A stretch of 64,000 bases of DNA from Candidatus Omnitrophota bacterium (GTDB taxonomy: Bacteria > Omnitrophota > Gorgyraeia > Duberdicusellales > 4484-171): NCBI GenBank assembly GCA_041652815.1, contig JBAZGN010000004.1, positions 143,890 to 207,889 on the forward strand, given 5' to 3'. The first letter of the stretch is position 1. Each line of letters begins with the position of its first letter. Shown one piece after another: positions 8,593 through 61,488 of this stretch. Position numbers and translations under genes: made by a program. Under the pieces are notes generated by a model that made no database searches, was not told where the DNA came from, and worked only from the letters and a program-made list of their open reading frames with translations.

Positions 8593-8607
8593 ATGGATAC
8601 ATTTAAA

Positions 8608-8715
8608 ATAACCAAGTTCCAATTTCCAATAACCAAACAATGACCAATACGCAAATTCCAATAGCCAAACGGAGCGTTATAGAATTGTTTGATCATTGGT
8701 TATTGGCTATTTTGT
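8608..8715. repeat. empty, degenerate copy of TIR family 2 (the family that carries a four-helix-bundle gene at 40043-40526)
   Basis: ATAACCAAGTTCCAATTTCCAATAACCAAACAATGACCAATACGCAAATTCCAATAGCCAAAC is ~85% identical to the left arm at 40043-40110. A short inverted right arm follows (GTTTGATCATTGGTTATTGGCTATTTT). Confidence 0.6.
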
Positions 8716-8864: not shown

Positions 8865-8965
8865 TGTGCTATCAGCTATCAGTCATCAGCTCTCAGCTGT
8901 CAGCCGCTTTTCAGGGTTGCCTCTTAAGGGGACTGAAAGCTGAAGGCTGACGACTGAAAGCTTTT
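8865..8965. repeat. short palindromic repeat family 3 (CAGCTGTCAGC / CTGAAAGCTGA motifs) immediately upstream of ilvB
   Basis: Shares the modules GTCGTCAGCC (or its reverse complement), CCCTTAAGGGG and CTGAAAGCTGAAAGCTTTTAA with 27770-27890 and 53435-53480. All three copies end within ~40 bp of a start codon. Confidence 0.55.
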
Positions 8966-8983
8966 AAGAAAGGAGGTTTTAAT

Positions 8984-26367: not shown

Positions 26368-26503
26368 AGGTTGCGTTATACGGTTGCGGTTACGCTGCTC
26401 GTTTCGCCATTCGTCTATCGGTTGCGTAATAAAAAGCATAAAAACGAACAACGCTTAACGCAACCGATATGAGCTGCGCAACCGCAACCGTTTGACACAA
26501 CCT
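26368..26503. repeat. empty MITE-like hairpin of TIR family 1 (GGTTGCGTTATACGGTTGCGGTTACGCTGCTC ... GAGCTGCGCAACCGCAACCGTTTGACACAACC)
   Basis: ~32 bp terminal inverted repeats plus internal inverted symmetry make a 136 bp near-perfect long hairpin. The same arms flank the four-helix-bundle gene at 52115-52657. Confidence 0.7.
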
Positions 26504-27769: not shown

Positions 27770-27890
27770 GAAAAGCCAAACCACGGCCCTCTGGCCAGCA
27801 GTCGTCAGCCTACAGTTCCCCTAAGGGGCGCCCTTGAAGGGCGGCTGATACCTGATATCTGAAAGCTGAAAGCTTTTAATAAGGGCTTTA
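27770..27890. repeat. repeat family 3 copy upstream of the esterase gene
   Basis: Contains GTCGTCAGCC, CCCCTAAGGGG and CTGAAAGCTGAAAGCTTTTAATAAGGG, shared with 8865-8965. Confidence 0.55.
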
Positions 27891-30265: not shown

Positions 30266-30313
30266 TCACATATTTAAACGGATTAACACAGATTTAGTAT
30301 ATCGTAAATCGTC

Positions 30314-30420
30314 CATCGGTTGCCTGCCCGCCTTCGGCGGGCGAGCTCGTTTCGTCATTCGTCAGACGTCTTACGTAAAACGCAACCGTGACGAGCTGCG
30401 TAACCGCAACCGTTTGACAA
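30314..30420. repeat. variant empty copy of TIR family 1
   Basis: Right arm ACGAGCTGCGTAACCGCAACCGTTTGACAA and internal GAGCTCGTTTCGTCATTCGT match the family. Left arm is partly replaced by a CTGCCCGCCTTCGGCGGGCGAG hairpin. Confidence 0.6.
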
Positions 30421-35812: not shown

Positions 35813-35915
35813 TTACGAAGGTTACAGCAATCAAGTGATTTCAATGTAACATTCGTAACTTAATCCTTCTGCCGAAGGCAGAAGGATTAACGTAACGTCC
35901 GTAACCTTCGTAACC
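35812..35915. repeat. nested palindrome, repeat family 4 (GTTACGAAGGTTAC...GTAACCTTCGTAAC with internal 13 bp stem TAATCCTTCTGCC/GGCAGAAGGATTA)
   Basis: Perfect 14 bp outer inverted repeats and a perfect 13 bp inner stem. Starts at the ygiQ stop codon. A partial relative lies at 19331-19380. Confidence 0.65.
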
Positions 35916-36393: not shown

Positions 36394-37638
36394 ATGAGAC
36401 AGCAGGAGTTCGTCATAAGTTCGTTAGGCATAGTTAGCCCTAATGGTATAGGAAAAGAGGCGTTTTGGAAGTCGCTTGAAGAAGGCCGTTCTGCGATTTC
36501 AAATATTGAGTCTTTTTCAACGGAGAAATTTTCCGTCAATTGCGCAGGGGAAATAAAGAATTTCGACCCGAAAGTGTTTCTTGGCCCAAAAGGCCTGCGG
36601 AATTTAGACAGAAGTTCACTGTTTTTGATGACAGCGGCAAAATTAGCACTTGATGATGCCAAACTCGCAATAACCGAATCAAACACTGACGACATCGGAG
36701 TTGTAACCGGTACAACTTTTCCGCATTTATGGTCTATGATTGAATTCGACAGAGAAGTTTTTAAGGAAGGATTGGATTTTTCAAATCCCGCGCTTTTTCC
36801 CTCAACTGTTTTAAATGCAGCTTCTTCTCAAGTGTCTATCCGTTTTAATATTCAAGGGTTTAATGCTTCTGTAAGCACAGGCTATACTTCCGGCCTACAA
36901 GCTTTAAAGTATTCGCTTATGATGCTTGAGACAGGTAAAGCCAAAACGGTTTTTTGCGGGGCGGTTGAGGCGCTCGCGCTTTCTTTATTTTTTGGTTTCT
37001 ATAAATTAGGTTATATGGCAGGAATAAACGGGCAAATGATTAGTTGCCCGTTTGACAAGCGCAGAAATGGGCCAATGTTTTCAGAAGCGGCTGCGGTTTT
37101 TTCTATAGAGCATCCTGAAACCGCACAAGCGCGTCAGGCTGAAATTTTAGCGAAGATACGAAGTGTCGCGTGCTATTTTGATGGTTTTAAGATAGCAAGA
37201 ATTCATCCGGATGGAGAAGGCCTTGAAAAAGCAATAGTAAAAGTTTTAGATGAGGCAGGTGTGGCTACAACTGATATTGATTATATTTCAAGCTGTGCCA
37301 ATTCTTCATTTGAAATGGATAAGACGGAAGTGAAAGTTTTACAGAAAATTTTTGGCGATAACCTTTCAAGGATACCAGTAAGTTCTATAAAATCAATGCT
37401 GGGAGAAACGCTTTCTGCAGCCTCAGTTTTGCAGATAGCTTCTTGCATCGGAGCGATGAAGAGCGGCATAATCCCGCCTACAATAAACTACAAAGAAAAA
37501 GACCCGGAATGTGATATTGATTGTGTTCCCAATAAAGCGCAGAAAAAGGATGTAAAATTAGCTTTAGTTGTTTCTTTCGGCCCTGGAGGGTATAATAGTG
37601 CGTGTGTTTTGGAGAAATACGCAGATGATCACGGATAA
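36394..37638 (+). CDS. beta-ketoacyl synthase-fold protein lacking the Cys-His-His catalytic triad (chain-length-factor / KS-beta-like)
   Basis: Aligned to FabF, the ATACTSG active-site Cys is STGYTSG here (Tyr). The first His block HGTST is CANSS. The second, GHxxGAAG, is GETLSAAS. Overall KS fold retained (414 aa). Confidence 0.75.
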   Translation: MRQQEFVISSLGIVSPNGIGKEAFWKSLEEGRSAISNIESFSTEKFSVNCAGEIKNFDPKVFLGPKGLRNLDRSSLFLMTAAKLALDDAKLAITESNTDDIGVVTGTTFPHLWSMIEFDREVFKEGLDFSNPALFPSTVLNAASSQVSIRFNIQGFNASVSTGYTSGLQALKYSLMMLETGKAKTVFCGAVEALALSLFFGFYKLGYMAGINGQMISCPFDKRRNGPMFSEAAAVFSIEHPETAQARQAEILAKIRSVACYFDGFKIARIHPDGEGLEKAIVKVLDEAGVATTDIDYISSCANSSFEMDKTEVKVLQKIFGDNLSRIPVSSIKSMLGETLSAASVLQIASCIGAMKSGIIPPTINYKEKDPECDIDCVPNKAQKKDVKLALVVSFGPGGYNSACVLEKYADDHG

Positions 37639-37759
37639 AAAGCAGATAGTCACAGATTATTTAAAACGTATCAGGTCCCACGTAACAGGTAACAAGTTTT
37701 TACGAACGTGATACCTGCTACTTGATACGTGTTACTTTTTAAACAATTTACGATCATCT

Positions 37760-38515
37760 GTGCAAGATATGAAAGACCTAAAAAACAAAACTGTAATTAT
37801 AACTGGGGGTTCAAGAGGGATAGGCAAGGCTTGTTGTCTTGCATTTGCCAAGGCCGGCGCCAATATAATTTTTACTTTTAACAAAAGCCAGAAAGAAGCT
37901 GACGAACTGGCTGCGCAAATTAAAAATCTTGGCGTGGAGTGTTTAAGCATACAGGCAGATGTGCGGGAATATAATCAGTGCCGTACAATTATTGAAAAAG
38001 CAATCGAACGGTTTAAGGAAATAGATGTTTTGATAAATAATGCTGGTATTACAAAAGATAAATCGCTTTTTATGATGCTTCCGGAAGAGTGGCATGATGT
38101 TATAAATACAAACCTTAACGGAACTTTCAATATGACGAAAGCCACAATCATAACCTTTTTAAAGCAGAAAAAAGGCTGCATAATCAATATGAGTTCAGTA
38201 AGCGGCATTGTGGGGCTGCCGGGACAATCGAATTACAGCGCCTCCAAGGCAGGTATAATAGGTTTTTCAAAAGCGCTGGCAAAAGAAGTCGCAGGGCAAA
38301 ATGTCCGAGTAAATGTAGTTTGTCCGGGTTTTATCGAAACTGATATGGTTGGTTCTATACGCGAAGACATCAAAAAAGAAGTCTTAAAAAGCATTCCGCA
38401 AAAACGTTTGGGAAAAGCAGAAGAAGTTGCGGATTTGTGCGTGTTCTTAGCTTCCGATAAAGCATCATATATTACAGGGGAAACAATAAAGATAGATGGC
38501 GGGTTGGCGATTTGA
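37760..38515 (+). CDS. 3-oxoacyl-ACP reductase (FabG-like SDR)
   Basis: TGGSRGIGKA cofactor motif. NNAG. Catalytic SSVSG...YSASKAG (S-Y-K). 251 aa. Colinear with FabG. Confidence 0.85.
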   Translation: MQDMKDLKNKTVIITGGSRGIGKACCLAFAKAGANIIFTFNKSQKEADELAAQIKNLGVECLSIQADVREYNQCRTIIEKAIERFKEIDVLINNAGITKDKSLFMMLPEEWHDVINTNLNGTFNMTKATIITFLKQKKGCIINMSSVSGIVGLPGQSNYSASKAGIIGFSKALAKEVAGQNVRVNVVCPGFIETDMVGSIREDIKKEVLKSIPQKRLGKAEEVADLCVFLASDKASYITGETIKIDGGLAI

Positions 38516-38626
38516 ACATAGAAGCGGATTACCGCGGAACAAGACACGGATAAACGCAAAGATATCTGTGCGTAAATCCGCGTTTAGATCCGCGACTATC
38601 CGCTTCTAATTATTAAAGGAGGATTT

Positions 38627-39012: not shown

Positions 39013-39255
39013 ATGGAGGTGGATGATATGCCTACGAAGAACCCGCGTTTAAATGTAGTTTTAGAACCGCCAGTATATAACGTTCTAAATGTTCTGGCAC
39101 ACCGCAAGGGAATTTCTTTGTCGCTTTTGGCCAGGGATTTAATAAAAGAAGCATTGGAAATTTATGAGGATCTTTATTGGCAGCGTGTTGCAAATTTACG
39201 GGAGAAAACCTTTTCCTATAAAAAAGCTTTGTCGCACAAAGATATTTGGGAATAA
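39013..39255 (+). CDS. ribbon-helix-helix antitoxin (RelB/ParD/CopG-like)
   Basis: NVVLEPPVYNVLNVLAHRKGISLSLLARDLI has RHH topology. Probable true start at 39028 (MPTKN). Overlaps the toxin gene by 10 nt. Confidence 0.6.
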   Translation: MEVDDMPTKNPRLNVVLEPPVYNVLNVLAHRKGISLSLLARDLIKEALEIYEDLYWQRVANLREKTFSYKKALSHKDIWE

Positions 39256-39527
39256 TGGCGTACAACATTTTTTATCATTACGATATCCCAAAGGACCTTT
39301 CAAAAATTCCCGGTAATATAAAGAAACGTATACGTAAGGCAATTGAACAGCGTTTATCGGAAGAACCCTTGAAATATGGAGAACCTTTAAAAAGGAGCCT
39401 TCACGGTTATTGGAAGTTGCGAGTAGGAGACTTTAGGGTTATTTTTAAAATCGAAAAAGAAAATATCGTAATTTTAAAAATTGGCCACAGGCATGATATT
39501 TATTCTAAAGTCGACTCACGCTTGTAA
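39246..39527 (+). CDS. RelE/ParE-family type II toxin
   Basis: 93 aa. Family signature ...LHGYWKLRVGDFRVIFKIEKENIVILKIGHRHDIY. Confidence 0.75.
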   Translation: MGIMAYNIFYHYDIPKDLSKIPGNIKKRIRKAIEQRLSEEPLKYGEPLKRSLHGYWKLRVGDFRVIFKIEKENIVILKIGHRHDIYSKVDSRL

Positions 39528-39567: not shown

Positions 39568-40035
39568 ATGGAAGGCATTTGGGATATAAATAAAATTCAG
39601 GAAATACTGCCGCAGAGGTACCCTTTTTTATTTATTGATAGAGTTATATCAATTGATGAAAAAGAGGGTAAAGTAACCTGCCTTAAAAACTTTACTGCAA
39701 ACGATTATTTTTTCACCGGCCACTTTCCCGGTAAGCCGGTTGTGCCTGGTGTCATTATTATTGAAGCAATGGCGCAGGCAAGTATTATTGGTTTTGCCGC
39801 AATTAAGCCTGAAATTGCAAGTAAGCATCCAACTTATTATCTCGGCAAGGTAGAAGCAAAATTCAGAAAAGCCGTAACTGTGGGCGACCAACTTATCATA
39901 GAAGTAAAAAAAGAAAAAATAGTAAATAATGCAGGCGTAGTTACTGCTGTGGCAAAACTTAATGGAGAAGTGGCGGCTGAAGCTAAAATTATGTTTGGAG
40001 TAATTCCAAATAATCAAGCAAGTGATAATAAATAG
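39568..40035 (+). CDS. 3-hydroxyacyl-ACP dehydratase (FabZ-like hot-dog fold)
   Basis: Catalytic motif FFTGHFPGKPVVPGVIIIEAMAQA (HxxxGxxxxP). Hot-dog length of 155 aa. Confidence 0.85.
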   Translation: MEGIWDINKIQEILPQRYPFLFIDRVISIDEKEGKVTCLKNFTANDYFFTGHFPGKPVVPGVIIIEAMAQASIIGFAAIKPEIASKHPTYYLGKVEAKFRKAVTVGDQLIIEVKKEKIVNNAGVVTAVAKLNGEVAAEAKIMFGVIPNNQASDNK

Positions 40036-40042
40036 CTGGAGA

Positions 40043-40526
40043 AATAACCAAGCTCCAAGATACAAAAACCAAACAATGACCAATAATCAAATTCCAATAA
40101 TCAAACAAAAGGGCTAAAGAATTCGATTTGGAAAAAAGAACTACCGAATTCGCCAAGGCTGTAATCAGGATATGTAAAGATTTACCCAGAAATTCAATGA
40201 ATGATAGATTGATAGGTCAAGTAGTTGGAGCATCTGGTTCTGTTGGGGCAAACTATCGAGAAGCAAATGATGCTTTGGGAAAAAAGGATTTTATTCAAAG
40301 ACTTAAGATTGCTCGAAGAGAAGCCAAAGAAAGTCATCATTGGCTTGAGCTTATTTCTGAAGCTAACACGCATAAAGTAGATGAGATCAAACCGTTGACA
40401 CAAGAAGCTGTAGAGCTTAAAAATATTTTATCAGCAATTATCAATAAGTCAGAATAGTTTTGTTTGGTTATTGATTGTTGAGATTTGTATATTGTTTGGA
40501 GCTTGTATCTTGGTTATTGGTTATTC
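40043..40526. mobile_element. miniature TIR element (family 2) carrying a four-helix-bundle protein gene as cargo, inserted between fabZ-like and the active KS gene
   Basis: Left arm AATAACCAAGCTCCAAGATACAAAAACCAAACAATGACCAATAATCAAATTCCAATAATCAAACAAAA. Right arm is its imperfect reverse complement (...TTTTGTTTGGTTATTGATTG...CTTGGTTATTGGTTATT). An empty relative lies at 8608-8715. Confidence 0.65.
40128..40457 (+). CDS. four-helix-bundle protein (TIGR02436 / 23S-rRNA-intervening-sequence protein family)
   Basis: LIGQVVGASGSVGANYREA...GKKDFIQRLKIARREAKESHHWLELI matches the family core (..SIGANIAEG..R.S.KDF..FL.IA.GS..E....L.L). Confidence 0.8.
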   Translation: MEKRTTEFAKAVIRICKDLPRNSMNDRLIGQVVGASGSVGANYREANDALGKKDFIQRLKIARREAKESHHWLELISEANTHKVDEIKPLTQEAVELKNILSAIINKSE

Positions 40527-40550
40527 ATTTAAATATTTGTGTAAAACAAT

Positions 40551-46082: not shown

Positions 46083-48260
46083 ATGACTTTATTTGCAGCC
46101 TCATCTTTATTAATATTTGTTACTAGTTTGAGTTTAGCAATTTTTTTATTATGGGATAAAGCTAGGCAAAAACTTAGAAGGATTCTAGCAATCTTTTGCC
46201 TTTTTGCTGTCATATGGGGTTGGGCCGGTTTTAAGTTGGCTGTTGCAGGCTCTATTGAAAAGGCGTTTTATTGGTGGCAGATAGGATATATCTGCATAAT
46301 CTTTACACCGGTTATATATTCTCACTTTGTTTTTACCTTTCTAAATTACCGCAAAAAATTTTTAATTTTTTCATTTTACAGCTTAGCGCTAATTTTCTTA
46401 TTGTTTACATTTCTATCAGAAAAACTATTTTTAGGCAATTTGCGTTTTTCCTTTGAACAAATTTATTGGGTTGATTGGGTAAAATATAAAAATCCGATAT
46501 GGCTGGTATTTTACATTTATTTTTATTGGATAATATTAGGATATTCATTTATGCTGCTCCTAAAAGAATTAAGATGTTCATCTGGATTGAAAAAAGAGCA
46601 GATTAAATATTTCATTCTTGGTTCAATGATGGGATGGCTAGGCGCTCACGGAGATTTCCTTCCTGTCTTTAGGATAGAAATATATCCATACTCCAATTTC
46701 CTAATTGTAATATATCCCGCTATTTGGGCCTACGCCATCCTGAAATACCGTCTCATGGACATCCGCGTTTTTATTTCTCGCGCCGTTACGTTTATAATAA
46801 GCTATACCTTTTTATTAGGCGTTCCTTTTTTCTTTGCTTACAGAATGTATCCAGTTTTATACCCTATATGGGGAAAGCATTGGTGGCTTGCACCGGTTGG
46901 CCTTATGACATTTTTTGCAACACTCGCTCCTTTAGCTTATGATCAAATACGAAGAGGGGTTGAGAATAGATTTTTAGCTGAACAAAAACGCTATCAAAAA
47001 TTATTACTTCAGGCAGCAAGCGGAATGGCAAGGGAACATAATTTAAATAGATTATCGAAGCTCATTGTGTATATTGTTAAAAGGATTGTTAAGATTGATT
47101 TTGCTGCAATTTTTCTTGAGGATAAAGAACATAAAACATATAGACTTAAGGCAATACGTGATTCTGGAGTAGGGGGCTATACTTTAGAGTTTGCTTATGA
47201 TACTGAGTTTATTAGATTTTTAAAAAATAACAAAGAGCCCTATTTATATGAAGAGCTTCCTCTTGGTGTGCAGAGTTCGCTAACTTTTCCAAAACGTATA
47301 AGTCTGATTTTACCGTCTTTGATTGAAGATAATCTTTTGGGTTTCGTGGTTCTGGGAGAAAAAAGCAATCGTGAACCATATTCAGAAGATGACATAAATG
47401 TATTTAAGATACTTACCAATCAGGCAGCGATGACTATCGAGAACTGTTTGTTTTTCGATGAATTTAAAAACGCGCAAGAAAAAATATTTACTGCGGAAAA
47501 ATTAGCTTCAATAGGCGGTATGGCTGACGGAGTTGCGCATCAGATAAAAAACCGGCTTAATCATTTTTCTATAGCATCAGGAGAACTCAAGTGCGAAATA
47601 GAAGATTTCATTTCTAAGCGCAAACCACTTGTTGAACAAAATCCTGATTTAGCTAAAACTTTTGAGTACGCTATTGAAATAGCCAATTCTTTGATAAAGA
47701 ATGTAAAGATGACAGATGGTATTGTAAGAGGCATATTAACTTATGCTCGTGTTGAAGAAAAAGAAACATTCTTTTCTCATTTTTCCCTGAAGGAAGTCAT
47801 CGATGCTGCACTTGAGTTGCTTAAGATAAAACATGAGCTTCAGGAATTTCCTTTGCAGATTGACTTAGATAATTGTGATATGATTTATGGTGTAAAAGCG
47901 CAGATTATGGAATCAATGTATAACATTCTCGACAACGGCTATGAGGCTAGTTTGGATAAGAAACATCATCTCTCAAGAGAGGAAAAGGAAAAATTTACGC
48001 CTTTGATTAAGCTTAAGCTTACAGAAGGAAGTAATAATTACCGTATTGAAATTTCCGATAATGGATCAGGCATTAAAGATGAAGCCAAACAAAAGATATT
48101 CGCCCCATTTTTTACCACAAAATCCTCCTACAAATCAGGAACCGGCATTGGTATGTATGTGGTTAGAAGAATTGTCGAAGAAAACCACAAAGGCCGAATC
48201 TGGTTCGAATCCGCCCATATGCAGGGAACAAAGTTCATAATCGAATTGCCGAAAAAATAA
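46083..48260 (+). CDS. sensor histidine kinase: N-terminal ~8-TM sensor module, GAF domain, HisKA, HATPase_c
   Basis: Polytopic N-terminus. GAF-like middle. H-box GGMADGVAHQIKNRLN. N/G boxes ISDNGSGI...FTTK...GTGIGMYVV. Confidence 0.8.
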   Translation: MTLFAASSLLIFVTSLSLAIFLLWDKARQKLRRILAIFCLFAVIWGWAGFKLAVAGSIEKAFYWWQIGYICIIFTPVIYSHFVFTFLNYRKKFLIFSFYSLALIFLLFTFLSEKLFLGNLRFSFEQIYWVDWVKYKNPIWLVFYIYFYWIILGYSFMLLLKELRCSSGLKKEQIKYFILGSMMGWLGAHGDFLPVFRIEIYPYSNFLIVIYPAIWAYAILKYRLMDIRVFISRAVTFIISYTFLLGVPFFFAYRMYPVLYPIWGKHWWLAPVGLMTFFATLAPLAYDQIRRGVENRFLAEQKRYQKLLLQAASGMAREHNLNRLSKLIVYIVKRIVKIDFAAIFLEDKEHKTYRLKAIRDSGVGGYTLEFAYDTEFIRFLKNNKEPYLYEELPLGVQSSLTFPKRISLILPSLIEDNLLGFVVLGEKSNREPYSEDDINVFKILTNQAAMTIENCLFFDEFKNAQEKIFTAEKLASIGGMADGVAHQIKNRLNHFSIASGELKCEIEDFISKRKPLVEQNPDLAKTFEYAIEIANSLIKNVKMTDGIVRGILTYARVEEKETFFSHFSLKEVIDAALELLKIKHELQEFPLQIDLDNCDMIYGVKAQIMESMYNILDNGYEASLDKKHHLSREEKEKFTPLIKLKLTEGSNNYRIEISDNGSGIKDEAKQKIFAPFFTTKSSYKSGTGIGMYVVRRIVEENHKGRIWFESAHMQGTKFIIELPKK

Positions 48261-48263
48261 GTA

Positions 48264-49883
48264 TTATTTAATTTGTGTGATTGGTATCTTTATCGTAACC
48301 TTTGTTCCCTTTATTTCACCACTTTCCACCCCAATCTCTCCCTTATGTTCCTTGATTATGCCATAGATAATTGACATACCTAAGCCGGTTCCTGTATCTT
48401 TGGTAGTGTAGAAAGGGTCAAAGATATGTTCTAAATCTTTCTTAGCAATACCTTTTCCAGTGTCACTGATGGTTAGTTCGATATAATCAGGGTTTGCTTT
48501 AGTTGCTACACTTAACTGCCCACCTTCTTTCATTGCATCAATTGCATTTAAAAATAAATTACAAAATACCTGCTGCATTTGATTCGGATCTATACTTAAA
48601 AGAGGGAGCGAGTTGTCATAATTCCTGACCAGTGCGATTTTATACTTAATAAGGCTATTGCTAAGCAGGGAAAGCGTCTGATCAATGACTTGATGGATAT
48701 TAACTTCGCGTAACTGTAGTGGCTTTGGCTTGGAGAAATCCAGGAGTTGCTGAACGATGTCGTTTATTTTGTTTACTTCCATGCTTACAATCTTATGAAA
48801 TTTCTCAACAAACTTAGGGTCAGTGTATTTCTCGGGCAGGTATTCAGTAAAAGTCTTAATGCCGGTTAAAGGATTTTTTATCTCATGTGCCATACCAGCA
48901 GCAAGAGTACCCACTGCCTTAAGACGTTCCGCGCGTTTTAATTCTTCTTGTGCTTTTTGAAGCTCGTCAGCTAGAGCTGCTTGGGAACCCTTGAAAAAGT
49001 ATTTATCAATAAAGGATTGGATGGCATTCTTCAAGGGCTGGAATAGTAAAGTAAATATAATCAAAAAACCTATAGTCAAGGATATAGATTTATAACCTAC
49101 GAATCCACGGAAAGAAGATTCTACGATGTAGATTAGAATAAAATAACTTACAGTAATTAATGTAACTAAAATCGAATAAACAGCAGTTCTTTTAATGACA
49201 ATGTTTATATCGAGCAAATGATGGCGGAGGATGGCGTAGGTAGCAATTCCTGCCCAGAGACTTCCGAGATAAGTTAAAAATGGCAAAAGGGGAACATTTA
49301 CGTCGTATCCTAGAAGAAAATTTCCGCTACCTCCTGCAAATCCAAGAAACGTGCTCCAAAATAAATATTTCAATTGATTTCGTCTTCCTCCTGATGAATT
49401 TATGTATGCCTCGAATAATTTGCGTAGAGAATATACAACGCAAATACTATAAAAGATAGCCAGAAAGTGATAAGCTAAACCCGGTATGGCAAAATATTTA
49501 ACATAAAATTTAGGTACCACATCTGCTACCATATATTTTGTTGGAGACAGGCCGATAAATATAATATTTAATAAATAAGCAAGGCGTATTGCCCAGCCTT
49601 TATTCTTGATTTGTAAAAACGAAATAGTGAAATGGAAGAAAAATGTTGATATAAAGAATACCCCGATTAAAAGTAAGTGTGCCCAAAAAAAAGCCGTTTG
49701 ATATTTATCGCAGGATATCAACCAAATTTGACTAAAACTCCACAAGAATACACTAAAAGAGTGCAAACCGTAAAGCTTATGGCTTTTCTCGGTGCCTTTA
49801 ACAAACAGAAAAATTCCAAAAAATAACGATACCAAAGCTTCAATCCATAAGGCAATAACAAAATTAATTAGTAAAGAGTTCAT
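48264..49883 (-). CDS. sensor histidine kinase with polytopic N-terminal sensor domain (tandem paralogue A)
   Basis: H-box LAAGMAHEIKNPLTGI. HATPase ISDTGKGI...FYTTK...GTGLGMSII. About 100 aa of the catalytic core are identical to the upstream paralogue. Confidence 0.8.
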   Translation of the reverse strand: MNSLLINFVIALWIEALVSLFFGIFLFVKGTEKSHKLYGLHSFSVFLWSFSQIWLISCDKYQTAFFWAHLLLIGVFFISTFFFHFTISFLQIKNKGWAIRLAYLLNIIFIGLSPTKYMVADVVPKFYVKYFAIPGLAYHFLAIFYSICVVYSLRKLFEAYINSSGGRRNQLKYLFWSTFLGFAGGSGNFLLGYDVNVPLLPFLTYLGSLWAGIATYAILRHHLLDINIVIKRTAVYSILVTLITVSYFILIYIVESSFRGFVGYKSISLTIGFLIIFTLLFQPLKNAIQSFIDKYFFKGSQAALADELQKAQEELKRAERLKAVGTLAAGMAHEIKNPLTGIKTFTEYLPEKYTDPKFVEKFHKIVSMEVNKINDIVQQLLDFSKPKPLQLREVNIHQVIDQTLSLLSNSLIKYKIALVRNYDNSLPLLSIDPNQMQQVFCNLFLNAIDAMKEGGQLSVATKANPDYIELTISDTGKGIAKKDLEHIFDPFYTTKDTGTGLGMSIIYGIIKEHKGEIGVESGEIKGTKVTIKIPITQIK

Positions 49884-51490
49884 GTGTTAAATGGTAATTT
49901 AATTATAAAACTTGTTCCTTTGTTTTCTTTAGATTCTACTTCAATAGTTCCCCTATGTTCCTTGATTATCCCATAGATAATTGACATACCTAAGCCGGTT
50001 CCGGTTTCTTTGGTGGTGTAGAAAGGATCGAAGATATGTTCCAGGTCTTTTTCAGAAATGCCTTTGCCGGTGTCGTTGACAGTTATTTCTGCGTAGTCAG
50101 GCATTGCTTTGGTAGCAACACTTAACTTACCGCCTCCTTTCATTGCCTCTATGGCATTGAGAAAGAGATTGCAGAATACTTGCTGCATCTGATTAGGGTC
50201 TATAGAAACAGAGGATAGAGAACTATCGTAATTCCTAATCAGTTTAATTTTATATTTGATAAAGCTATTGCTAAGCAGGGAAAGAGTTTGGTTAATGATT
50301 TTATGGATATTGGATTCCTGCAATTTTAACGGTTTTGGCTTGGAGAAATCTAAGAGCTGCTGGACAATATCGTTTATTTTGTTTACTTCCATACTTACTA
50401 TCTTATGAAACTTCTCAACAAACTTAGGGTCAGTGTATTTCTCAGGCAGGTATTCAGTAAAAGTCTTAATGCCGGTTAAAGGGTTTTTAATCTCATGTGC
50501 CATTCCTGCAGCTAAAGTACCTACTGCTTTAAGGCGCTCAGCGCGTTTTAACTCTTCCTGGGCTTTTTGGAGTTCATCCGCGAGAACAGCTTGGGAGGTT
50601 TTAAAGAAATATTTATCCACAAAAGACTGGATTAAATTCTTAAGTGGCTGGAATATTAAGATAAAAAGAGCAATAACACTCAACGTCCAGGGGACAGATT
50701 TATAACCTACAAAACCTCGGAAGAGCGATTCCATAATATATACGATAACAAAGTAAGCAATGGTAATCATGGTAACTAGAATAGAATAAACTGCAGTTTT
50801 CTTGATGGCGATATTTATATCGAGCAAATGGTGGCGGACGATGGCATAAGACATAATAGCTATATAAAGAATTACAAAAATGAATCCAAAAGGATAAAAT
50901 TCAACACCATAGTTTTGAATAAAATCAACAGCTGCAAAGGTATAAACAAACAAGGCTAACGGGATATATTTCATTTTTGTGTATTGATTGGAAGAGAGAT
51001 TTTTTCGTTCTTTTTGTATAAATATATATGATGTTAAAAAAATCCAAACAACAAGACATGTAAAAAATAATAAATAGATTGGATGTAAAGAAGATGCTTT
51101 TGGATAATAACCCCAATAATATTTATAATATCCTTGGATAAAATAATTGGTATCCCATAATAATAAAACGAAAAAGCAACCCAATAAATAAGCAGCTATA
51201 ATTATCTTTTTTTGTTTATTAGCAAAACCCAGAAAAATCGCATTGAAATGAAGCCCTGTAATCGCAAGGAATATCACCCCTGTGTATCCAATCTTTAACC
51301 ATACCGAGGCGATATCTATTTCTTTGAACTGATATGAAATAGCGTAAGATAGTAACCAGATAAAATTAAAAAAACCGAACAAGCCAAATATTTTATTTAT
51401 AAAAGCAGCTCTATCTTTAGCAAAAACAAATATACTCAATGAGATGACTAAAAACGCTGCAATAAAATATGGTATTGAATAAATGTTCAT
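49880..51490 (-). CDS. sensor histidine kinase with polytopic N-terminal sensor domain (tandem paralogue B)
   Basis: Same catalytic core as 48264-49883 (identical from LADELQKAQEELKRAERLKAVGTLAAGMAHEIKNPLTGIKTF... to ...DFSKPKPL). Divergent membrane sensor region. Confidence 0.8.
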   Translation of the reverse strand: MNIYSIPYFIAAFLVISLSIFVFAKDRAAFINKIFGLFGFFNFIWLLSYAISYQFKEIDIASVWLKIGYTGVIFLAITGLHFNAIFLGFANKQKKIIIAAYLLGCFFVLLLWDTNYFIQGYYKYYWGYYPKASSLHPIYLLFFTCLVVWIFLTSYIFIQKERKNLSSNQYTKMKYIPLALFVYTFAAVDFIQNYGVEFYPFGFIFVILYIAIMSYAIVRHHLLDINIAIKKTAVYSILVTMITIAYFVIVYIMESLFRGFVGYKSVPWTLSVIALFILIFQPLKNLIQSFVDKYFFKTSQAVLADELQKAQEELKRAERLKAVGTLAAGMAHEIKNPLTGIKTFTEYLPEKYTDPKFVEKFHKIVSMEVNKINDIVQQLLDFSKPKPLKLQESNIHKIINQTLSLLSNSFIKYKIKLIRNYDSSLSSVSIDPNQMQQVFCNLFLNAIEAMKGGGKLSVATKAMPDYAEITVNDTGKGISEKDLEHIFDPFYTTKETGTGLGMSIIYGIIKEHRGTIEVESKENKGTSFIIKLPFNT

Positions 51491-51692
51491 TGCATTTATA
51501 TGCCTTTAGTTAAAATAAAAGTGCTCATAGAAAACGAGGTTGTAGTCTCAACCAATGAGGCGATGATATAATTGAGGAGTAGGTAATTCATATAAATTAA
51601 GCAGCAAGCGTTAAGTAGCACGTTTCACGTAGCCTCGCCACCGTATAAAAACATTTAGGCGAGTCCACCTGGGGTGGAGGTAACACGTCTTT

Positions 51693-51735
51693 TAAAACGT
51701 GTTACGTGTTACTTGTTACGTGATACTATTTGGGG
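51693..51735. repeat. direct repeat copy 1 (GTTACGTGTTACTTGTTACGTGATACTAT), flanks the RR/4HB/XRE module with 53263-53305
   Basis: A 31 nt core is nearly identical to 53277-53307. A related reverse-oriented fragment lies at ~37700-37740. Confidence 0.6.
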
Positions 51736-52108
51736 ATTTTAAAACTTTCTGGACAGTTTCTTTTACTAAAGAAGATTCAAACGGTTTGGTAATGTATTCA
51801 AGGATGCCGTATTTACTTGCTTCAGCAGCCGTTTCAACGCTTTGGTATCCGGTAACCATAATCACTTTTATGTTTGGCTTTTTCTGGCGCAGTTCTTTTA
51901 GCGCTTCAAGTCCGTTCTTCTGGGGCATTTTTATATCCATAATGATTAAATCAGGGTTTGCTTTCTCAAGATAACGTAAAGCTTCGTTGCCATTGCCGGT
52001 AAAGGCCAGATTATAATCTTCGCCCAGGATAAGGTTTAATGATTCCCGGACGCCTTCTTCGTCATCGCAGATAAGGATTGTTTTTCTTTCATTCATAGTT
52101 ACCTCCAT
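51716..52108 (-). CDS. single-domain response regulator (CheY-like receiver)
   Basis: ILICDDEE acidic pocket. Phospho-acceptor Asp in LIIMDIKMP. T in IMVTGY. K in TKPF. 130 aa. The C-terminal 7 codons lie inside the direct repeat. Confidence 0.85.
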   Translation of the reverse strand: MEVTMNERKTILICDDEEGVRESLNLILGEDYNLAFTGNGNEALRYLEKANPDLIIMDIKMPQKNGLEALKELRQKKPNIKVIMVTGYQSVETAAEASKYGILEYITKPFESSLVKETVQKVLKSPNSIT

Positions 52109-52114
52109 GTTTCT

Positions 52115-52657
52115 GGTTGCGTTGAACGGTTGCGGTTACGCTGCTCGTTTCGTCATTCGTTTAACGGTTACGTTCGGCTTTCCGTTCCCCAAATTTATCC
52201 CAGGCAAGTGCCAGATTGTAACACTGTCTGCTAATTTTGTCATAAGCATCGATTAGTTTTTCGCATAATTTGATGTCAACAAAAGAAAAATATAGATCTT
52301 TGGCTTGAGTTAGAGAAACTATCGTTTCGTTAGATTCGGTCATTGCATCATCTAAATACTTTTGAAAACCTTTCCTTTGGTGCCTTTTAGAATGACCTTC
52401 GGCTATTAAACGAGGAATCGCTTTAACTGAGCGTCTAAGCTGATCAACCAAATCATATTTTTCTTCGCTCGGCAATTTGGGCAAAATATCCTTAAACGCT
52501 TCACACATTGCTTGGTAGCTACTTTGGTAAACCTCCAAATCCTGAAAACTTCGTATAGGCTTTTTATCTTCCATAATGTTTTAGATTTTTTTCACTACGT
52601 TTTACGATAAACGTAACCGATACTAGCCGCGCAACCGCAACCAATTGACGCAACCTT
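52115..52657. mobile_element. TIR family 1 element carrying a four-helix-bundle protein gene (543 bp), inserted between the XRE-cupin regulator and the response regulator
   Basis: Left arm GGTTGCGTTGAACGGTTGCGGTTACGCTGCTCGTTTCGTCATTCGT. Right arm AACGTAACCGATACTAGCCGCGCAACCGCAACCAATTGACGCAACC. Both match the empty hairpins at 26368-26503 and 30314-30420. Confidence 0.7.
52161..52574 (-). CDS. four-helix-bundle protein (23S rRNA intervening-sequence protein family)
   Basis: N-terminal IRSFQDLEVYQ...LPSEEKYDLVDQLRRSVKAIPRLIAEGHSKR matches the S23/IVS-protein signature (F.DL.VWQ...FPK.E.Y.L..QIRRAA.SI..NIAEG). The C-terminal codons are encoded inside the element arm. Confidence 0.85.
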   Translation of the reverse strand: MEDKKPIRSFQDLEVYQSSYQAMCEAFKDILPKLPSEEKYDLVDQLRRSVKAIPRLIAEGHSKRHQRKGFQKYLDDAMTESNETIVSLTQAKDLYFSFVDIKLCEKLIDAYDKISRQCYNLALAWDKFGERKAERNR

Positions 52658-53208
52658 TATAGAGCAACGGGTGTTACTACGCAAAGACACATTGCATCCC
52701 CTTTACCTATATTTTTAATGTAGTGCGGTTGAGAGGCATCAAAATAAAGAGTTGTGCCTTTTTCTAAAATCTCTTTATTTGTGCCAATTATAATTTCGAT
52801 TTTTCCACTTAAGACATAGATAAATTTTTCTGCGCCGAGTTTTAATTCTTCTTTATGGGTTTTTCCGCCGCGTTTTAGCTCAATAAGCACCGGCAGCATC
52901 TTTTTATTAAAAATATCTTTGGTTAAAATAGTGGAGGAAGCATCTTTGTTGTGGACAAACATATTGGCGCGATATTCTTGTTCTGGTTCGGTTTGGTTGG
53001 CTTTAAGTTTGTCTACTTCGCTGTAGAATTGTGGTAGTGTTAGGCCAAGGGCTTTGGCAATTTGCATATGCGATTCCAGAGTTCCGGTCATTTTCCCGGT
53101 TTCAATGCGGCTTAAGGTTGCGAGGGCAACATTACTTTTTTGCGAAAGCTCGGCCAAAGTCAGCCCCGCATCTTTACGTAAGTTTCTAATTACTGCGCCT
53201 ATATTCAT
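52657..53208 (-). CDS. XRE-family HTH transcriptional regulator with C-terminal cupin domain
   Basis: N-terminal HTH IRNLRKDAGLTLAELSQKSNVALATLSRIETGK. C-terminal cupin (GKTHKEEL...FIYVLSGKIEI...LYFDASQPHYIKNIG). Confidence 0.8.
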   Translation of the reverse strand: MNIGAVIRNLRKDAGLTLAELSQKSNVALATLSRIETGKMTGTLESHMQIAKALGLTLPQFYSEVDKLKANQTEPEQEYRANMFVHNKDASSTILTKDIFNKKMLPVLIELKRGGKTHKEELKLGAEKFIYVLSGKIEIIIGTNKEILEKGTTLYFDASQPHYIKNIGKGDAMCLCVVTPVAL

Positions 53209-53262
53209 TGTGTTATTTTTGTAAGTTAAAAAGTATCAAGTAACAGGTATCGCGCAGCGTGT

Positions 53263-53305
53263 TTTTAAAGACTTGTTACGTGTTACTTGCTACGTGATAC
53301 TATCT
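53263..53305. repeat. direct repeat copy 2 (GTTACGTGTTACTTGCTACGTGATACTAT)
   Basis: See 51693-51735. This copy gives rise to a spurious ORF beginning MLRVTCYVIL, as does copy 1. Confidence 0.6.
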
Positions 53306-53434
53306 AAGTATTACCAGTGTAACTTATTTTTGCTGAATAGTCAACTAAATTTTGTGAATAAGCAAATGTTTAAAGCCCTCAATTCAAAAGAGCAAATAAA
53401 AGTCTTTTTTCCCAAAACAAAATGCGATATACTG

Positions 53435-54576: not shown

Positions 54577-54676
54577 AATCTAGGGCTAATTTTTCTTTAC
54601 AATCATACTTTCCGGTTGTATAATTTAAAATCTGTAAAGTATTAACGGGTTTTCTTAAAAGGATACGGAGGTTGAT

Positions 54677-55652: not shown

Positions 55653-55742
55653 ATGCCTTGTGGAAGGAAAAGAAAGCTGAAAAAAGTGAAAAGACACTGG
55701 TTTAAGAAGAGAAGAAAACAACAGAGACATAAATCTAGATAA
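55653..55742 (+). CDS. candidate unannotated 29-aa highly basic peptide (bS22 / DUF1713-like ribosomal-type peptide?)
   Basis: ATG at 55653 gives MPCGRKRKLKKVKRHWFKKRRKQQRHKSR, with 18 of 29 residues K/R/H. AGGAG lies 11 nt upstream. The stop is immediately followed by a perfect 19 bp inverted repeat. Below the six-frame track's size cutoff. Confidence 0.3.
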   Translation: MPCGRKRKLKKVKRHWFKKRRKQQRHKSR

Positions 55743-60342: not shown

Positions 60343-60431
60343 AGAAAGGTTAAGGCTAAGGTCAAGGCTAATTAAAAAACGGATTTATTATATTCTCGAC
60401 CTTAACCTCAGCCTTTTTTGTTTTTATAGAT

Positions 60432-60590
60432 TGCCCGGTAGTGTCCCTGAACCAGAGTCGCCTTCGGCAACACGGTTCAGGGTTAAAAAATTGGTAACAC
60501 AGCAGAATTTGCCGTGAATCAGAGCAAAGCACGGTTCACGGCAACCCTATACCGTGCGAGCAAAGCGAGCTCTGGTATAGGGTTGGGTCA
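60432..60590 (+). other. partial tRNA-Gln copy (acceptor/D-arm/anticodon-stem 5' part) interrupted by two small hairpin insertions
   Basis: TGCCCGGTAGTGT + [CCCTGAACCAGAG...GGTTCAGGG hairpin] + AATTGGTAACACAGCAGAATTTG + [~70 nt double-hairpin element CCGTGAATCAGAG...GGTATAGGG] + TTGGGTC, then unrelated sequence. Confidence 0.6.
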
Positions 60591-60594
60591 AAAC

Positions 60595-60867
60595 ATGCAC
60601 TGTGTTTATATCTTATATAGTAAAAAGATTAAGCGATTCTATATTGGCTATACTGAAAATTTGCCAAGAAGGATAGCCGAACATGAACGAGGAAGCACTT
60701 GGACAACGGCTAGGTTGCCAGGATTCGAATTGATATTTTGTGAATATTTTGTTTCTCGTCTAGATGCTGTAAGGCGAGAAAAATATTTCAAGACTACAAA
60801 AGGAAAAAGATCATTGAAGCTAATTTTGAGAGATTCACTCAACGACAACGATTGCCCGGTAGTGTAA
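60595..60867 (+). CDS. GIY-YIG nuclease-superfamily protein (short YhbQ/UPF0213-like type)
   Basis: VYILYSKKIKRFYIGYTENLPRRIAEHERG is the GIY-(10)-YIG...R...E signature. Likely start at 60595 (MHCVY). The track ORF from 60514 reads through the hairpin element upstream. The 3' end overlaps the tRNA start. Confidence 0.7.
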   Translation: MHCVYILYSKKIKRFYIGYTENLPRRIAEHERGSTWTTARLPGFELIFCEYFVSRLDAVRREKYFKTTKGKRSLKLILRDSLNDNDCPVV

Positions 60868-60924
60868 TTGGTAACACAGCAGAATTTGGGTCTGTTTTTT
60901 GTGGTTCGAGTCCACACCGGGCAG
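60854..60924 (+). tRNA. tRNA-Gln (anticodon UUG), intact
   Basis: Folded by hand. Acceptor TGCCCGG/CCGGGCA with U1:A72 and G73 (Gln identity). U8. D-stem GTGT/ACAC with GG in the loop. Anticodon stem GCAGA/TCTGT. Loop ATTTGGG (U33, anticodon TTG). T-arm TGTGG-TTCGAGT-CCACA. No encoded CCA. Confidence 0.7.
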
Positions 60925-60942
60925 ATAGATTACTTAGTAGTA

Positions 60943-61065
60943 CAGCAGAATTTGCCGTGAACCAGAGCAAAGCACGGTTCACGGCAACCCTATACTGTGC
61001 GAGCAAAGCGAGCTCTGGTATAGGGTTGGGTCTGTTTTTTGTGGTTCGAGTCCACACCGGGCAGT
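60943..61065 (+). other. partial tRNA-Gln copy (anticodon stem to 3' end) carrying the same ~70 nt double-hairpin insertion in the anticodon loop
   Basis: CAGCAGAATTTG + CCGTGAACCAGAGCAAAGCACGGTTCACGGCAACCCTATACTGTGCGAGCAAAGCGAGCTCTGGTATAGG + GTTGGGTCTGTTTTTTGTGGTTCGAGTCCACACCGGGCAG. The 3' 41 nt are identical to the intact tRNA. Confidence 0.6.
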
Positions 61066-61209
61066 ACTTCGACTCGTTCGCCCTTCGTTTACGAAGGGCT
61101 CACTCGCTCAGTACAAGTTTTTAATATTAAACCTCGGGGTGAACGAGGAGAAGTATCCTGAGCGAACGACGAGCGATCCATAATAAGCGTAACCTAATTA
61201 AAGCGAGGA

Positions 61210-61488
61210 GTGAGTCGAAGGATAATGTGGTATGTGTATATTCTCAGTTGCGAGAACGGAGATTTGTACACTGGCATTACAAATAATCTTAAGCGTCGAT
61301 TCGAAGAGCATGCATCGGGCAAAGGTGGTCATTTCACGAAATCGTTTATAGCGAAAGATATTTTATTTTCCGAAGAGCATCCCGATAAGTCGTCAGCGTT
61401 AAGACGCGAAGCTCAAATTAAAGGTTGGACGAGGAAAAAGAAATTAGCGTTGGCCAAAAAAGATTTAGAGCTTTTGAATAAACTATAG
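61210..61488 (+). CDS. GIY-YIG nuclease-superfamily protein (YhbQ/UPF0213-like), second copy
   Basis: WYVYILSCENGDLYTGITNNLKRRFEEHASGKGGHFTK...LRREAQIKGW is colinear with E. coli YhbQ. The start is either the GTG at 61210 or the ATG at 61225. Confidence 0.75.
   Translation: MSRRIMWYVYILSCENGDLYTGITNNLKRRFEEHASGKGGHFTKSFIAKDILFSEEHPDKSSALRREAQIKGWTRKKKLALAKKDLELLNKL

Follow-up and report, generated by a model that had tools for sequence, protein, structure and literature searches.

Four-helix-bundle genes in heptamer-armed hairpin cassettes between protein-coding genes: probable selfish elements of the rRNA intervening-sequence type in a Candidatus Omnitrophota genome

Intervening sequences (IVSs) of 23S rRNA that carry an S23p open reading frame (ORF) were reportedly described by Ralph and McClelland in 1993. 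Here we analyzed a stretch of 64,000 nucleotides from a Candidatus Omnitrophota bacterium (GenBank assembly GCA_041652815.1, contig JBAZGN010000004.1, positions 143,890 to 207,889; hereafter the window), in which two genes of this four-helix-bundle (4HB) family lie between protein-coding genes, each enclosed by long inverted arms. In the Coxiella IVS, tandem GACAGAT heptamers stand before the S23p ORF; excision by RNase III and decay of the ORF have been described, the IVS has been called a selfish element, and the idea that IVSs are mobile is an old one (PMC4990558). Heptamer simple-sequence repeats are over-represented in some bacteria (PMC4692102, PMC4679880), among them GGGAATC in Xanthomonas, where 70-75 pairs are in convergent (inverted) orientation, and GGGGAYT in Nostoc (PMC4692102), as well as TAACTGA repeats, whose cross-phylum distribution was suggested to reflect horizontal transfer (PMC4679880). 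Neither of these two papers mentions 4HB/S23p genes or rRNA IVSs. 4HB genes located between cas genes have been listed as cas-associated (PMC3936711), and PF05635 proteins are homologous to the Avd protein of diversity-generating retroelements (DGRs) (PMC10053308). Full-text literature searches returned no paper linking 4HB genes, heptamer arms, and insertion outside rRNA; work outside the searched library may exist.

As listed in Table 1, each element is a unit of about 0.5 kb, in which a 4HB gene (S23p/Avd-like) stands between two imperfect reverse-complement arms made of heptamers; in sister elements, a GxxExxY PD-(D/E)XK gene takes the place of the 4HB gene. The start codon follows closely on the 5′ arm without a Shine-Dalgarno sequence, and the last codons run into the 3′ arm. 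We found that these cassettes are discrete gene-plus-arm units which occupy unrelated sites, vary in presence among relatives, and have arms that are specific to the protein clade across phyla. An earlier, sequence-only reading of this DNA had seen in them either the same small gene hitch-hiking in two unrelated transposable elements of the miniature inverted-repeat kind (MITEs) or a stem-loop module, similar to an IVS, that can land outside rRNA, and in either case gene and arms transposed as one discrete unit that also exists in ORF-less versions. This last point proved correct, and we consider it probable that the elements are IVS-type selfish hairpin cassettes of mRNA spacers that decay to ORF-less hairpins.

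The 4HB assignment was upheld by searches with hidden Markov models, in which both ORFs exceeded the curated cut-offs. The 137-aa protein of family 1 matched PF05635 (23S_rRNA_IVP) with E = 2.5e-18 and TIGR02436 with E = 4e-15, and the 109-aa protein of family 2 did so with E = 3e-18 and E = 3e-24; the scores were 66.7 and 66.4 bits for PF05635 (cut-off, 33.8) and 55.9 and 85.3 bits for TIGR02436 (cut-off, 24). In an AlphaFold monomer model, the 137-aa protein is predicted to fold into an up-and-down bundle of four helices (pLDDT 83.7); among PDB folds, 2RLD (target-normalised TM-score 0.84) and 2GSC (0.82), both from the S23 ribosomal protein family, fit this model best. A 4HB profile (alignment A2) matched the same two entries at 1e-22 and 1e-18. 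Compared with each other by BLAST, the two window proteins showed no detectable similarity (E = 13), and by sequence they belong to very distant subfamilies. The family 1 clade has 2861 members at E ≤ 1e-8, and their named sources are the same phyla as those of the family 1 hairpins described below; the family 2 clade comprises 2141 proteins at E ≤ 1e-10, with more than 120 clusters at 73-91% identity and a typical length of 115 aa. Family 1 homologues are 132-175 aa long, which suggests that reading of the gene into the arms is common. In the family 1 cassette copy L112 (1860-1925), a start codon that could be annotated, with AGGAGG before it, is found upstream of the 5′ arm, which would then be translated as MKENSDGCGCAARNDNS....

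Long inverted arms were recovered around both genes where the sequence-only reading had placed them, and both arm families were found to be arrays of degenerate tandem heptamers. Pooled arms of the window matched at lag 7 with a frequency of 0.44, compared to 0.28 in the null (z = 12.1), and lag 14 was likewise raised (z = 10.7). No other lag was prominent, coding controls were flat, and arms from other loci gave z = 6.2 at lag 7 and z = 7.2 at lag 14. The two families had been called unrelated; their arms do differ in sequence, yet they form one class by this heptamer build. The arms are 45-85 nt long and 72-82% complementary to each other, and the duplexes comprise 39-67 inter-arm pairs with predicted energies of -56 to -68 kcal/mol. 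In family 1, positions 52115-52152 pair with 52618-52655 (79% complementarity), and the pairing reaches inward (52162-52174 with 52610-52622), so that the final codons, stop codon included, fall within the arm, in agreement with what had been read from the sequence. This cassette is bordered by the stop codon of a gene for a cupin protein with a helix-turn-helix domain (cupin-HTH; 52657-52659) and by the ribosome-binding site (RBS) GGAGG of a response-regulator (RR) gene (52100-52105). Four independent assemblies (L001-L004) have an identical family 1 locus, which is thus not an assembly artefact.

The arm pattern GGTTGCGGTTRCG occurred five times, against a chance expectation of 0.06, and the arms of the window do form related families. 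The alternative that they are ordinary terminators unique to each locus fails: they have no U-tract, promoter-like and terminator-like sites around the elements are no commoner than in shuffled sequence, and the arms of a pair are 465 and 347 nt apart, unlike the short stem-loop of an intrinsic terminator. We therefore rejected intrinsic terminators as an explanation of the arms. Rfam, run on the whole window at gathering thresholds and on the ORF-less hairpin at E ≤ 10, returned one tRNA and one spurious snoRNA, and no rRNA in the window; both genes lie in spacers between protein-coding genes.

Family 2 provided exact boundaries. Four copies align over a unit of 483 bp, from exactly AATAACCAA to exactly TTGGTTATT, at four unrelated operon spacers in two phyla (Table 1), and their flanks are unrelated, with no duplicated bases. 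In the window the raw arm pairing (40030-40110 with 40458-40538) runs past these ends, which comparison of the copies sets at 40043 and 40525. The window locus is also present in GCA_023227945.1. Where the three other copies have an ATG start codon, the window gene has AGG (40110-40112), and gene callers give products of 86 or 109 aa, not 115 aa. Either the TTG six codons downstream is used as the start or the gene is decaying, and the change from ATG to AGG is possibly an early step of decay. One gene upstream of this cassette, inside the same fatty-acid synthesis operon, the interval from acpP to the fabZ-like gene holds an antitoxin-like ORF (75 aa) and a ParE toxin gene (90 aa) at 39028-39527, as recognised by Pfam.

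The site of the family 1 cassette is polymorphic. Orthologues of the neighboring cupin-HTH gene are 78-89% identical in related Omnitrophota, and the spacer between this gene and the RR gene is empty in some of them and filled with different inserts in others (Table 1), with every insert positioned after the stop codon of one gene and ahead of the next gene's GGAGG. A second case was found in two Margulisiibacteriota assemblies of one locus, L152 and L153: after the pseudopilin stop codon, L152 (3898-4440, compared to 3890-3900 in L153) has an extra cassette with a 143-aa 4HB gene and the arms GTAATTAGAAATGGGAAATGAG... and ...CCCACATCTAATTAC. The sequence-only reading had proposed a test for target-site duplications (TSDs) at the insertion points, and no duplicated flanking bases were found at any insertion compared with empty or unrelated sites. 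In metagenome-assembled genomes, the cargo gene is co-oriented with both neighbors in all 13 cassettes. The unit thus inserts without TSD into intercistronic spacers, on the operon strand. As a separate observation, the spacer between the GT9 and HisG genes, 100 nt in the window (54577-54676), contains extra unannotated ORFs in L127 (8285-8620, 111 aa) and L128 (7340-8512, 390 aa) and is a second variable insertion spot of the region.

We further searched species-representative genomes (596 Gb) with an 18-nt family 1 arm pattern. At least 118 matches, mostly in G+C-rich genomes, compare with ~140 expected by chance according to our own estimate; the pattern is too weak for 596 Gb, and the total match count is therefore meaningless. 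Instead, 49 real family 1 loci were recognised solely by shared flanks beyond the 18-nt pattern. These share the extended consensus ggtt.CGTtaaaCGGTTGCGGTTGCGC.GCTCGTaTCGgTtg.cgttta.cGt and come, according to record titles, from Omnitrophota, several orders of Planctomycetota, Lentisphaerae, Armatimonadota, Cloacimonadota, Dehalococcoidia, and Desulfobacteraceae. Most of them are ORF-less hairpins of 60-200 nt, and for this reason a profile search near the hairpins gave only two loci, L043 (Dehalococcoidia) and L112, with a close homologue of the 137-aa protein between family 1 arms. Two more loci, L155 and L156, were picked by protein similarity alone, and both have family 1 arm variants that the DNA pattern could not reach. 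No recurrent protein was seen among the neighbors of the 49 hairpins. In IMG/VR viral contigs, family 2 was absent and the lone family 1 match was a coincidence in G+C-rich coding sequence, and a metagenome scan for syntenic loci with the 477-aa neighboring protein gave one distant match only.

Clade and arm family were coupled at every gene examined, with family 1 arms at 5/5 genes, spanning Omnitrophota, Planctomycetota, and Dehalococcoidia, and family 2 arms at 4/4. Together with the great distance between the two window proteins, this speaks against one gene hitch-hiking in two kinds of MITE; judged from the sequences, each gene has long been inherited together with its arms and is no captured cargo. 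The family 1 genes of the window, L043, and L112 have a third-codon-position identity of 45-50%, saturated synonymous divergence (dS), and a nonsynonymous divergence (dN) of 0.21-0.28. In the family 1 3′ arm, which played no role in locating L043 or L112, the window and L043 are identical at ~83% of positions by a count on alignment A1. A comparison of 23 family 1 hairpins showed primary-sequence conservation in both arms (3′ consensus, ACGAAACGAGCnGCGCAACCG); the arm consensus extends over 45 nt and is kept across several phyla, and the main stem has a single conserved mismatch. By these comparisons, gene and arms are evidently both under selection.

ORF-less hairpins are what the cassettes decay to, and such hairpins occupy about a third of the spacers in this genome. 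Of the three cargo-less hairpins named in the sequence-only reading, two were recovered as such: at 26368-26503, the left 59 nt share 90% identity with the arm at 52115 and the right 54 nt share 83% with that at 52604, and the hairpin at 8607-8711 is 86% identical over 65 nt to the 5′ arm at 40042. The third one, at 30311-30418, belongs to family 1 in part only (Table 1). Other spacer hairpins of the window are built from the word sets ATCAGCT, GTTACGT/GTGATAC, GCGGATT, CAGATGA, and AAGGCTA. The window has 41 spacers measuring 40 nt or more; folding z-scores are -4 or lower for 12 of them, and orthologous spacers in related genomes contain hairpins of differing word families. The spacer between the HisG gene and a TPR gene also encodes a conserved, very basic ORF of 29 aa (MPCGRKRKLKKVKRHWFKKRRKQQRHKSR; 55653-55742) with its own GGAGG; the ORF is kept in all four related contigs, and the hairpin upstream of it differs in word family in each.

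The same design was seen elsewhere. With tblastn against plasmids we found 17 4HB genes, mostly cyanobacterial, and those on Nostoc, Leptolyngbya, and Oscillatoria plasmids (L132-L134) lie in inverted arrays of GCAGGGA, GGAGAGN, and GGGAGAG heptamers. The Azospirillum match (L135) is an unannotated 4HB ORF inside a 23S rRNA gene, i.e., a classical helix-45 IVS, whose stem is GAGGACG GATGACA GAGGACG GAGGACA and the inverse. 4HB genes on viral contigs (L139-L147) have AGTAGGG, TCGGCNN, and CAACAGC arms. Several negative z-scores in the flank statistics of plasmid and viral loci were artefactual, since heptamer arrays read as open frames, and these loci were judged by eye.

Table 1. Cassettes, hairpins, and compared loci. 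Positions are those of the window; L numbers denote loci in other sequence records.
Feature	Position or locus	Strand	Remarks
Family 1 cassette, whole	52115-52657	-	Spacer from cupin-HTH stop codon to RR RBS
Family 1 5′ arm (relative to gene)	52600-52657	-	Holds conserved core GGTTGCGGTTGCGCGGCT
Family 1 4HB gene	52161-52574	-	137 aa; PF05635/TIGR02436; no Shine-Dalgarno sequence
Family 1 3′ arm	52115-52175	-	Inner part codes for last codons and stop codon of the gene
Family 1 copy	L155 (Sedimentisphaerales)		Between HNH gene and trigger factor gene
Family 1 copy	L156		Between aspartyl-tRNA synthetase gene and FtsX gene
Family 2 cassette, whole	40043-40525	+	Spacer from fabZ-like gene to fabF; ends set by three other copies
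Family 2 5′ arm	40043-40108	+	CCAA-type heptamer words
Family 2 4HB gene	40128-40457	+	109 aa from TTG start
Family 2 3′ arm	40460-40525	+	
Family 2 copy	Window		fab operon
Family 2 copy	L150		T2SSE operon (type II secretion system, T2SS)
Family 2 copy	L154		Spacer between two ABC permease genes
Family 2 copy	L152/L153		T2SSF-to-pseudopilin spacer, Margulisiibacteriota contig
Cupin-to-RR spacer	L125/L126		Empty, 13 nt (TAAcGGAGGtaatatcATG; TAAcGGAGG); RR 89% identical to that of the window
Cupin-to-RR spacer	Window		Family 1 cassette
Cupin-to-RR spacer	L130		121-aa 4HB gene, 33% identical to that of the window; arms GTATCACGT.../...ACGTGATAC, GTATCAC-type
Cupin-to-RR spacer	L128/L129		Fic gene, then GxxExxY gene (TIGR04256, E 8e-38); ACGGATG-type arms
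Cupin-to-RR spacer	L127		273-nt remnant of decayed GxxExxY cassette; arms still around remnant
ORF-less family 1 hairpin	26368-26503		Between convergent genes
ORF-less family 2 hairpin	8607-8711		Complete 5′ arm, shortened 3′ arm
Partial family 1 hairpin	30311-30418		Right arm and inner stem family 1; left arm a nested G+C-rich hairpin
Heptamer hairpin, another family	8868-8973		ATCAGCT/AGCTGAA words; related copy 27840-27885
Nested heptamer hairpins	37620-37770		Outer CAGATGA words; inner GTATCAC/GTAACAG words
Heptamer hairpin, 90 nt	38519-38608		GCGGATT-type words
GTTACGT-family hairpin, nested stems	51612-51740		Downstream of RR gene; related copies 53230-53306 and 37664-37737
GTTACGAAGGTTAC-type hairpin	35813-35912		Perfect inner stem nested within

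Other features of the window are recorded here in their own right. A tRNA-Gln cluster at 60431-61064 has an intact tRNA-Gln(UUG) (60852-60925) between two tRNA-Gln-like copies, in both of which a two-hairpin insert of ~75 nt (CCGTGAAyCAGAGC...GGTATAGGGTTG) interrupts the anticodon-loop region directly behind GAATTTG. In addition, the upstream copy bears a hairpin in its D-loop region, and a GIY-YIG ORF (about 60596-60867) comes after this copy. Rfam found no group I intron in this cluster. A second small GIY-YIG ORF lies at 61210-61488 (92 aa; PF01541, E 5e-20), with a CGAACGA/CTCGTTCG-type hairpin before it at 61065-61155; we considered it as a third type of cargo and rejected it, as it is not bracketed by inverted arms. 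The related contig L125 has a SpoVG-to-GlmU spacer of 236 nt, compared to 1431 nt in the window. A tandem pair of paralogous HisKA_7TM histidine kinase genes occupies 48264-51490 (48282-48581 and 49892-50191 are 77% identical over 300 nt); a third kinase gene, divergently oriented, lies at 46083-48260, and L125 has three such genes in tandem.

Taken together, these data suggest how an IVS-type cassette might persist in an operon. The cassette would have no promoter of its own and would be transcribed by read-through from the host operon. Its arms would pair in the RNA, as in pre-23S rRNA, and the resulting long duplex would be cut by RNase III, which would remove the cassette RNA and spare both the upstream cistron and the downstream RBS at the edge of the element. 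Such excision would explain why insertions into essential operons are tolerated. Since the arms are conserved in primary sequence and specific to the protein clade, we hypothesize that they are acted on during propagation by a factor with sequence specificity, for which the encoded 4HB protein together with host enzymes is the simplest candidate.

Several results weigh against this picture. RNAalifold on the family 1 hairpins gave 15 pairs, only one of which had any double change; this covariation test is uninformative because both arms are nearly invariant. Arm-to-arm mismatches on the sense strand showed no excess of G-U (32 G-U, compared to 37 A-C); even so, in three of four cassettes the sense strand had a slight folding advantage over the antisense. 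With almost no compensatory changes, selection for RNA pairing itself is not demonstrated, and the constraint on the arms looks like sequence recognition, which could act at the DNA level, rather than mere upkeep of a stem. RNase III cleavage in an mRNA context is proposed by analogy only. No arms were detectable at the second 4HB gene of L043 or at several viral 4HB loci, and two of the three 4HB genes on cyanobacterial plasmids are not co-oriented with their neighbors. The position beside stop codons and the co-orientation with the operon could also reflect selection after random insertion. Finally, the 64-kb window contains no candidate insertion enzyme, although a transposase may be encoded elsewhere in the genome. 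The proteins of the window include no transposase, integrase, reverse transcriptase, or RNase III, and PADLOC defence models had no match.

Conservation of both arms in primary sequence and not by covariation, with mismatches free of G-U bias, would fit classical MITEs or other terminal-inverted-repeat (TIR) transposons, whose TIRs would be bound by a DDE transposase encoded elsewhere and whose 4HB gene would be a passenger. The inverted ends in multiple copies, the discrete boundaries, and the ORF-less derivatives with common ends are also those of such elements, but the arms are long arrays of degenerate heptamers with limited complementarity, the compared sites show no TSD, no transposase is encoded in the window, no protein recurs near the 49 family 1 hairpins, and a coupling of clade and arm family in 9/9 genes across phyla is unexpected for passengers. 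We therefore regard the MITE-like label of the sequence-only reading as improbable. The missing TSDs, the conservation of both arms, and their clade specificity together argue against a standard DDE MITE and leave room for the encoded protein as the specificity factor. Insertion without TSD is equally what would be expected if the hairpins were mobilised as single-stranded DNA by an HUH/Y1 enzyme, in the manner of repetitive extragenic palindromes (REPs) and their REP-associated tyrosine transposases (RAYTs) or of IS200/IS605. Many-copy extragenic hairpins, with differing families side by side in one genome, and a conserved single mismatch in the main stem, typical of recognised hairpins, point the same way. 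However, REPs are 20-40 nt long, with a conserved 5′ tetranucleotide, and lineage-specific, whereas the arms here are long heptamer arrays, one family of which occurs in several phyla; IS200/IS605 ends are not mutually complementary, and no Y1 gene was found in the window or near the hairpins. We give this route the same low probability as the DDE one.

The presence of hairpins in about a third of the spacers, the slightly better folding of the sense strand in 3/4 cassettes, and the over-representation of heptamer repeats in some bacteria (PMC4692102, PMC4679880) could suggest that the host itself made regulatory or terminator hairpins by heptamer slippage in place, with 4HB genes as chance residents between them. 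This explanation is very unlikely and is already contradicted by the polymorphic site, which is empty and differently filled in close relatives, and by the 483-bp unit with identical ends at four unrelated loci; the lack of a U-tract in the arms, the lack of enrichment of terminator-like sites, and the maintenance of the arm sequence across phyla along with the gene also oppose it. Least credible, to the point of near exclusion, is the view that the elements are remnants or parts of DGRs with the 4HB protein as Avd. The homology of PF05635 to Avd (PMC10053308) would allow it, but no reverse transcriptase and no template/variable repeat (TR/VR) pair lies beside either gene or in the window, and the neighbors are housekeeping operon genes.

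A bolder extension of the IVS-type reading, which we find attractive but rather doubtful, is that the cassettes form an unrecognised class of autonomous mobile element, with the 4HB or GxxExxY protein as its own propagation factor. The protein would recognise the heptamer arms of its own family and recruit a nucleic-acid enzyme, as its homologue Avd does; one possible route would use the RNase III-excised hairpin RNA and a reverse transcriptase, and ORF-less hairpins would be non-autonomous derivatives. If so, rRNA IVSs and the short tandemly repeated repetitive (STRR), GGGAATC, and TAACTGA repeats would be products of the same machinery. The origin and mobility of rRNA IVSs, the abundance of tandem heptamers in some bacteria, and the function of the very large S23p family are puzzles which have been open for ~30 years and treated apart, and our data suggest that they are one phenomenon, that of a heptamer-arm hairpin cassette moving beyond rRNA. 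Objects for testing are provided by the 483-bp family 2 unit with its exact ends, the variably filled cupin-to-RR spacer, and the 45-nt family 1 consensus. Meanwhile, cassettes within essential fab, T2SS, ABC transporter, and cas operons can mislead annotation by guilt of association.

Among known systems, the intercistronic RNase III sites of phage T7 are hairpins between cistrons, whose cleavage separates mRNAs that stay functional. They resemble the cassettes as intercistronic hairpins, and cleavage of this kind is our proposed reason why the cassettes are tolerated; they differ in being short, fixed, regulatory, gene-free, and not mobile. The Avd protein of DGRs has a homologous four-helix-bundle fold (PMC10053308); the cassettes lack a reverse transcriptase and TR/VR, and Avd genes have not been reported inside hairpin arms. 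MITEs and the palindromes of REPs and bacterial interspersed mosaic elements (BIMEs) are, like the ORF-less hairpins, short, non-autonomous-looking intergenic hairpin families related to a longer gene-bearing form. Unlike them, the cassettes have heptamer arms, no TSD or matching transposase or RAYT gene was found, and their gene-bearing form codes for a 4HB or GxxExxY protein in place of a transposase. The cyanobacterial STRR repeats and the GGGAATC, GGGGAYT, and TAACTGA repeats share the intergenic tandem heptamers, and for the cyanobacterial 4HB genes of this study the flanks are exactly such arrays; cassette repeats are more degenerate and are arranged as paired arms around a gene or its remnant. 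The closest match is the rRNA IVS of Leptospira, Coxiella, Xanthomonas, and Brucella, and of the two alternatives in the sequence-only reading, the IVS-like module able to land outside rRNA came nearest. The likeness to an rRNA IVS is one of build and not of location: the two elements stand in spacers between the protein-coding genes of operons instead of in 23S rRNA helix 9, 25, or 45, and we file them as IVS-like, not as strict IVS members. The cassettes further differ from rRNA IVSs in occurring in many sequence families per genome, insertion-polymorphic and at several unrelated sites, and excision by RNase III, demonstrated for the IVS (PMC4990558), is for the cassettes an analogy. In common they have a PF05635 ORF within the loop of a long stem whose two sides are inverted flanks, which in both window cassettes enclose the whole insert; a poor or absent Shine-Dalgarno sequence, ORF decay, ORF-less versions, and a sporadic, seemingly horizontal distribution; and flanks in which heptamers stand in tandem, namely GACAGAT for Coxiella and GAGGACG/GATGACA for the helix-45 IVS of Azospirillum, whose build is the same as that of the cassettes.

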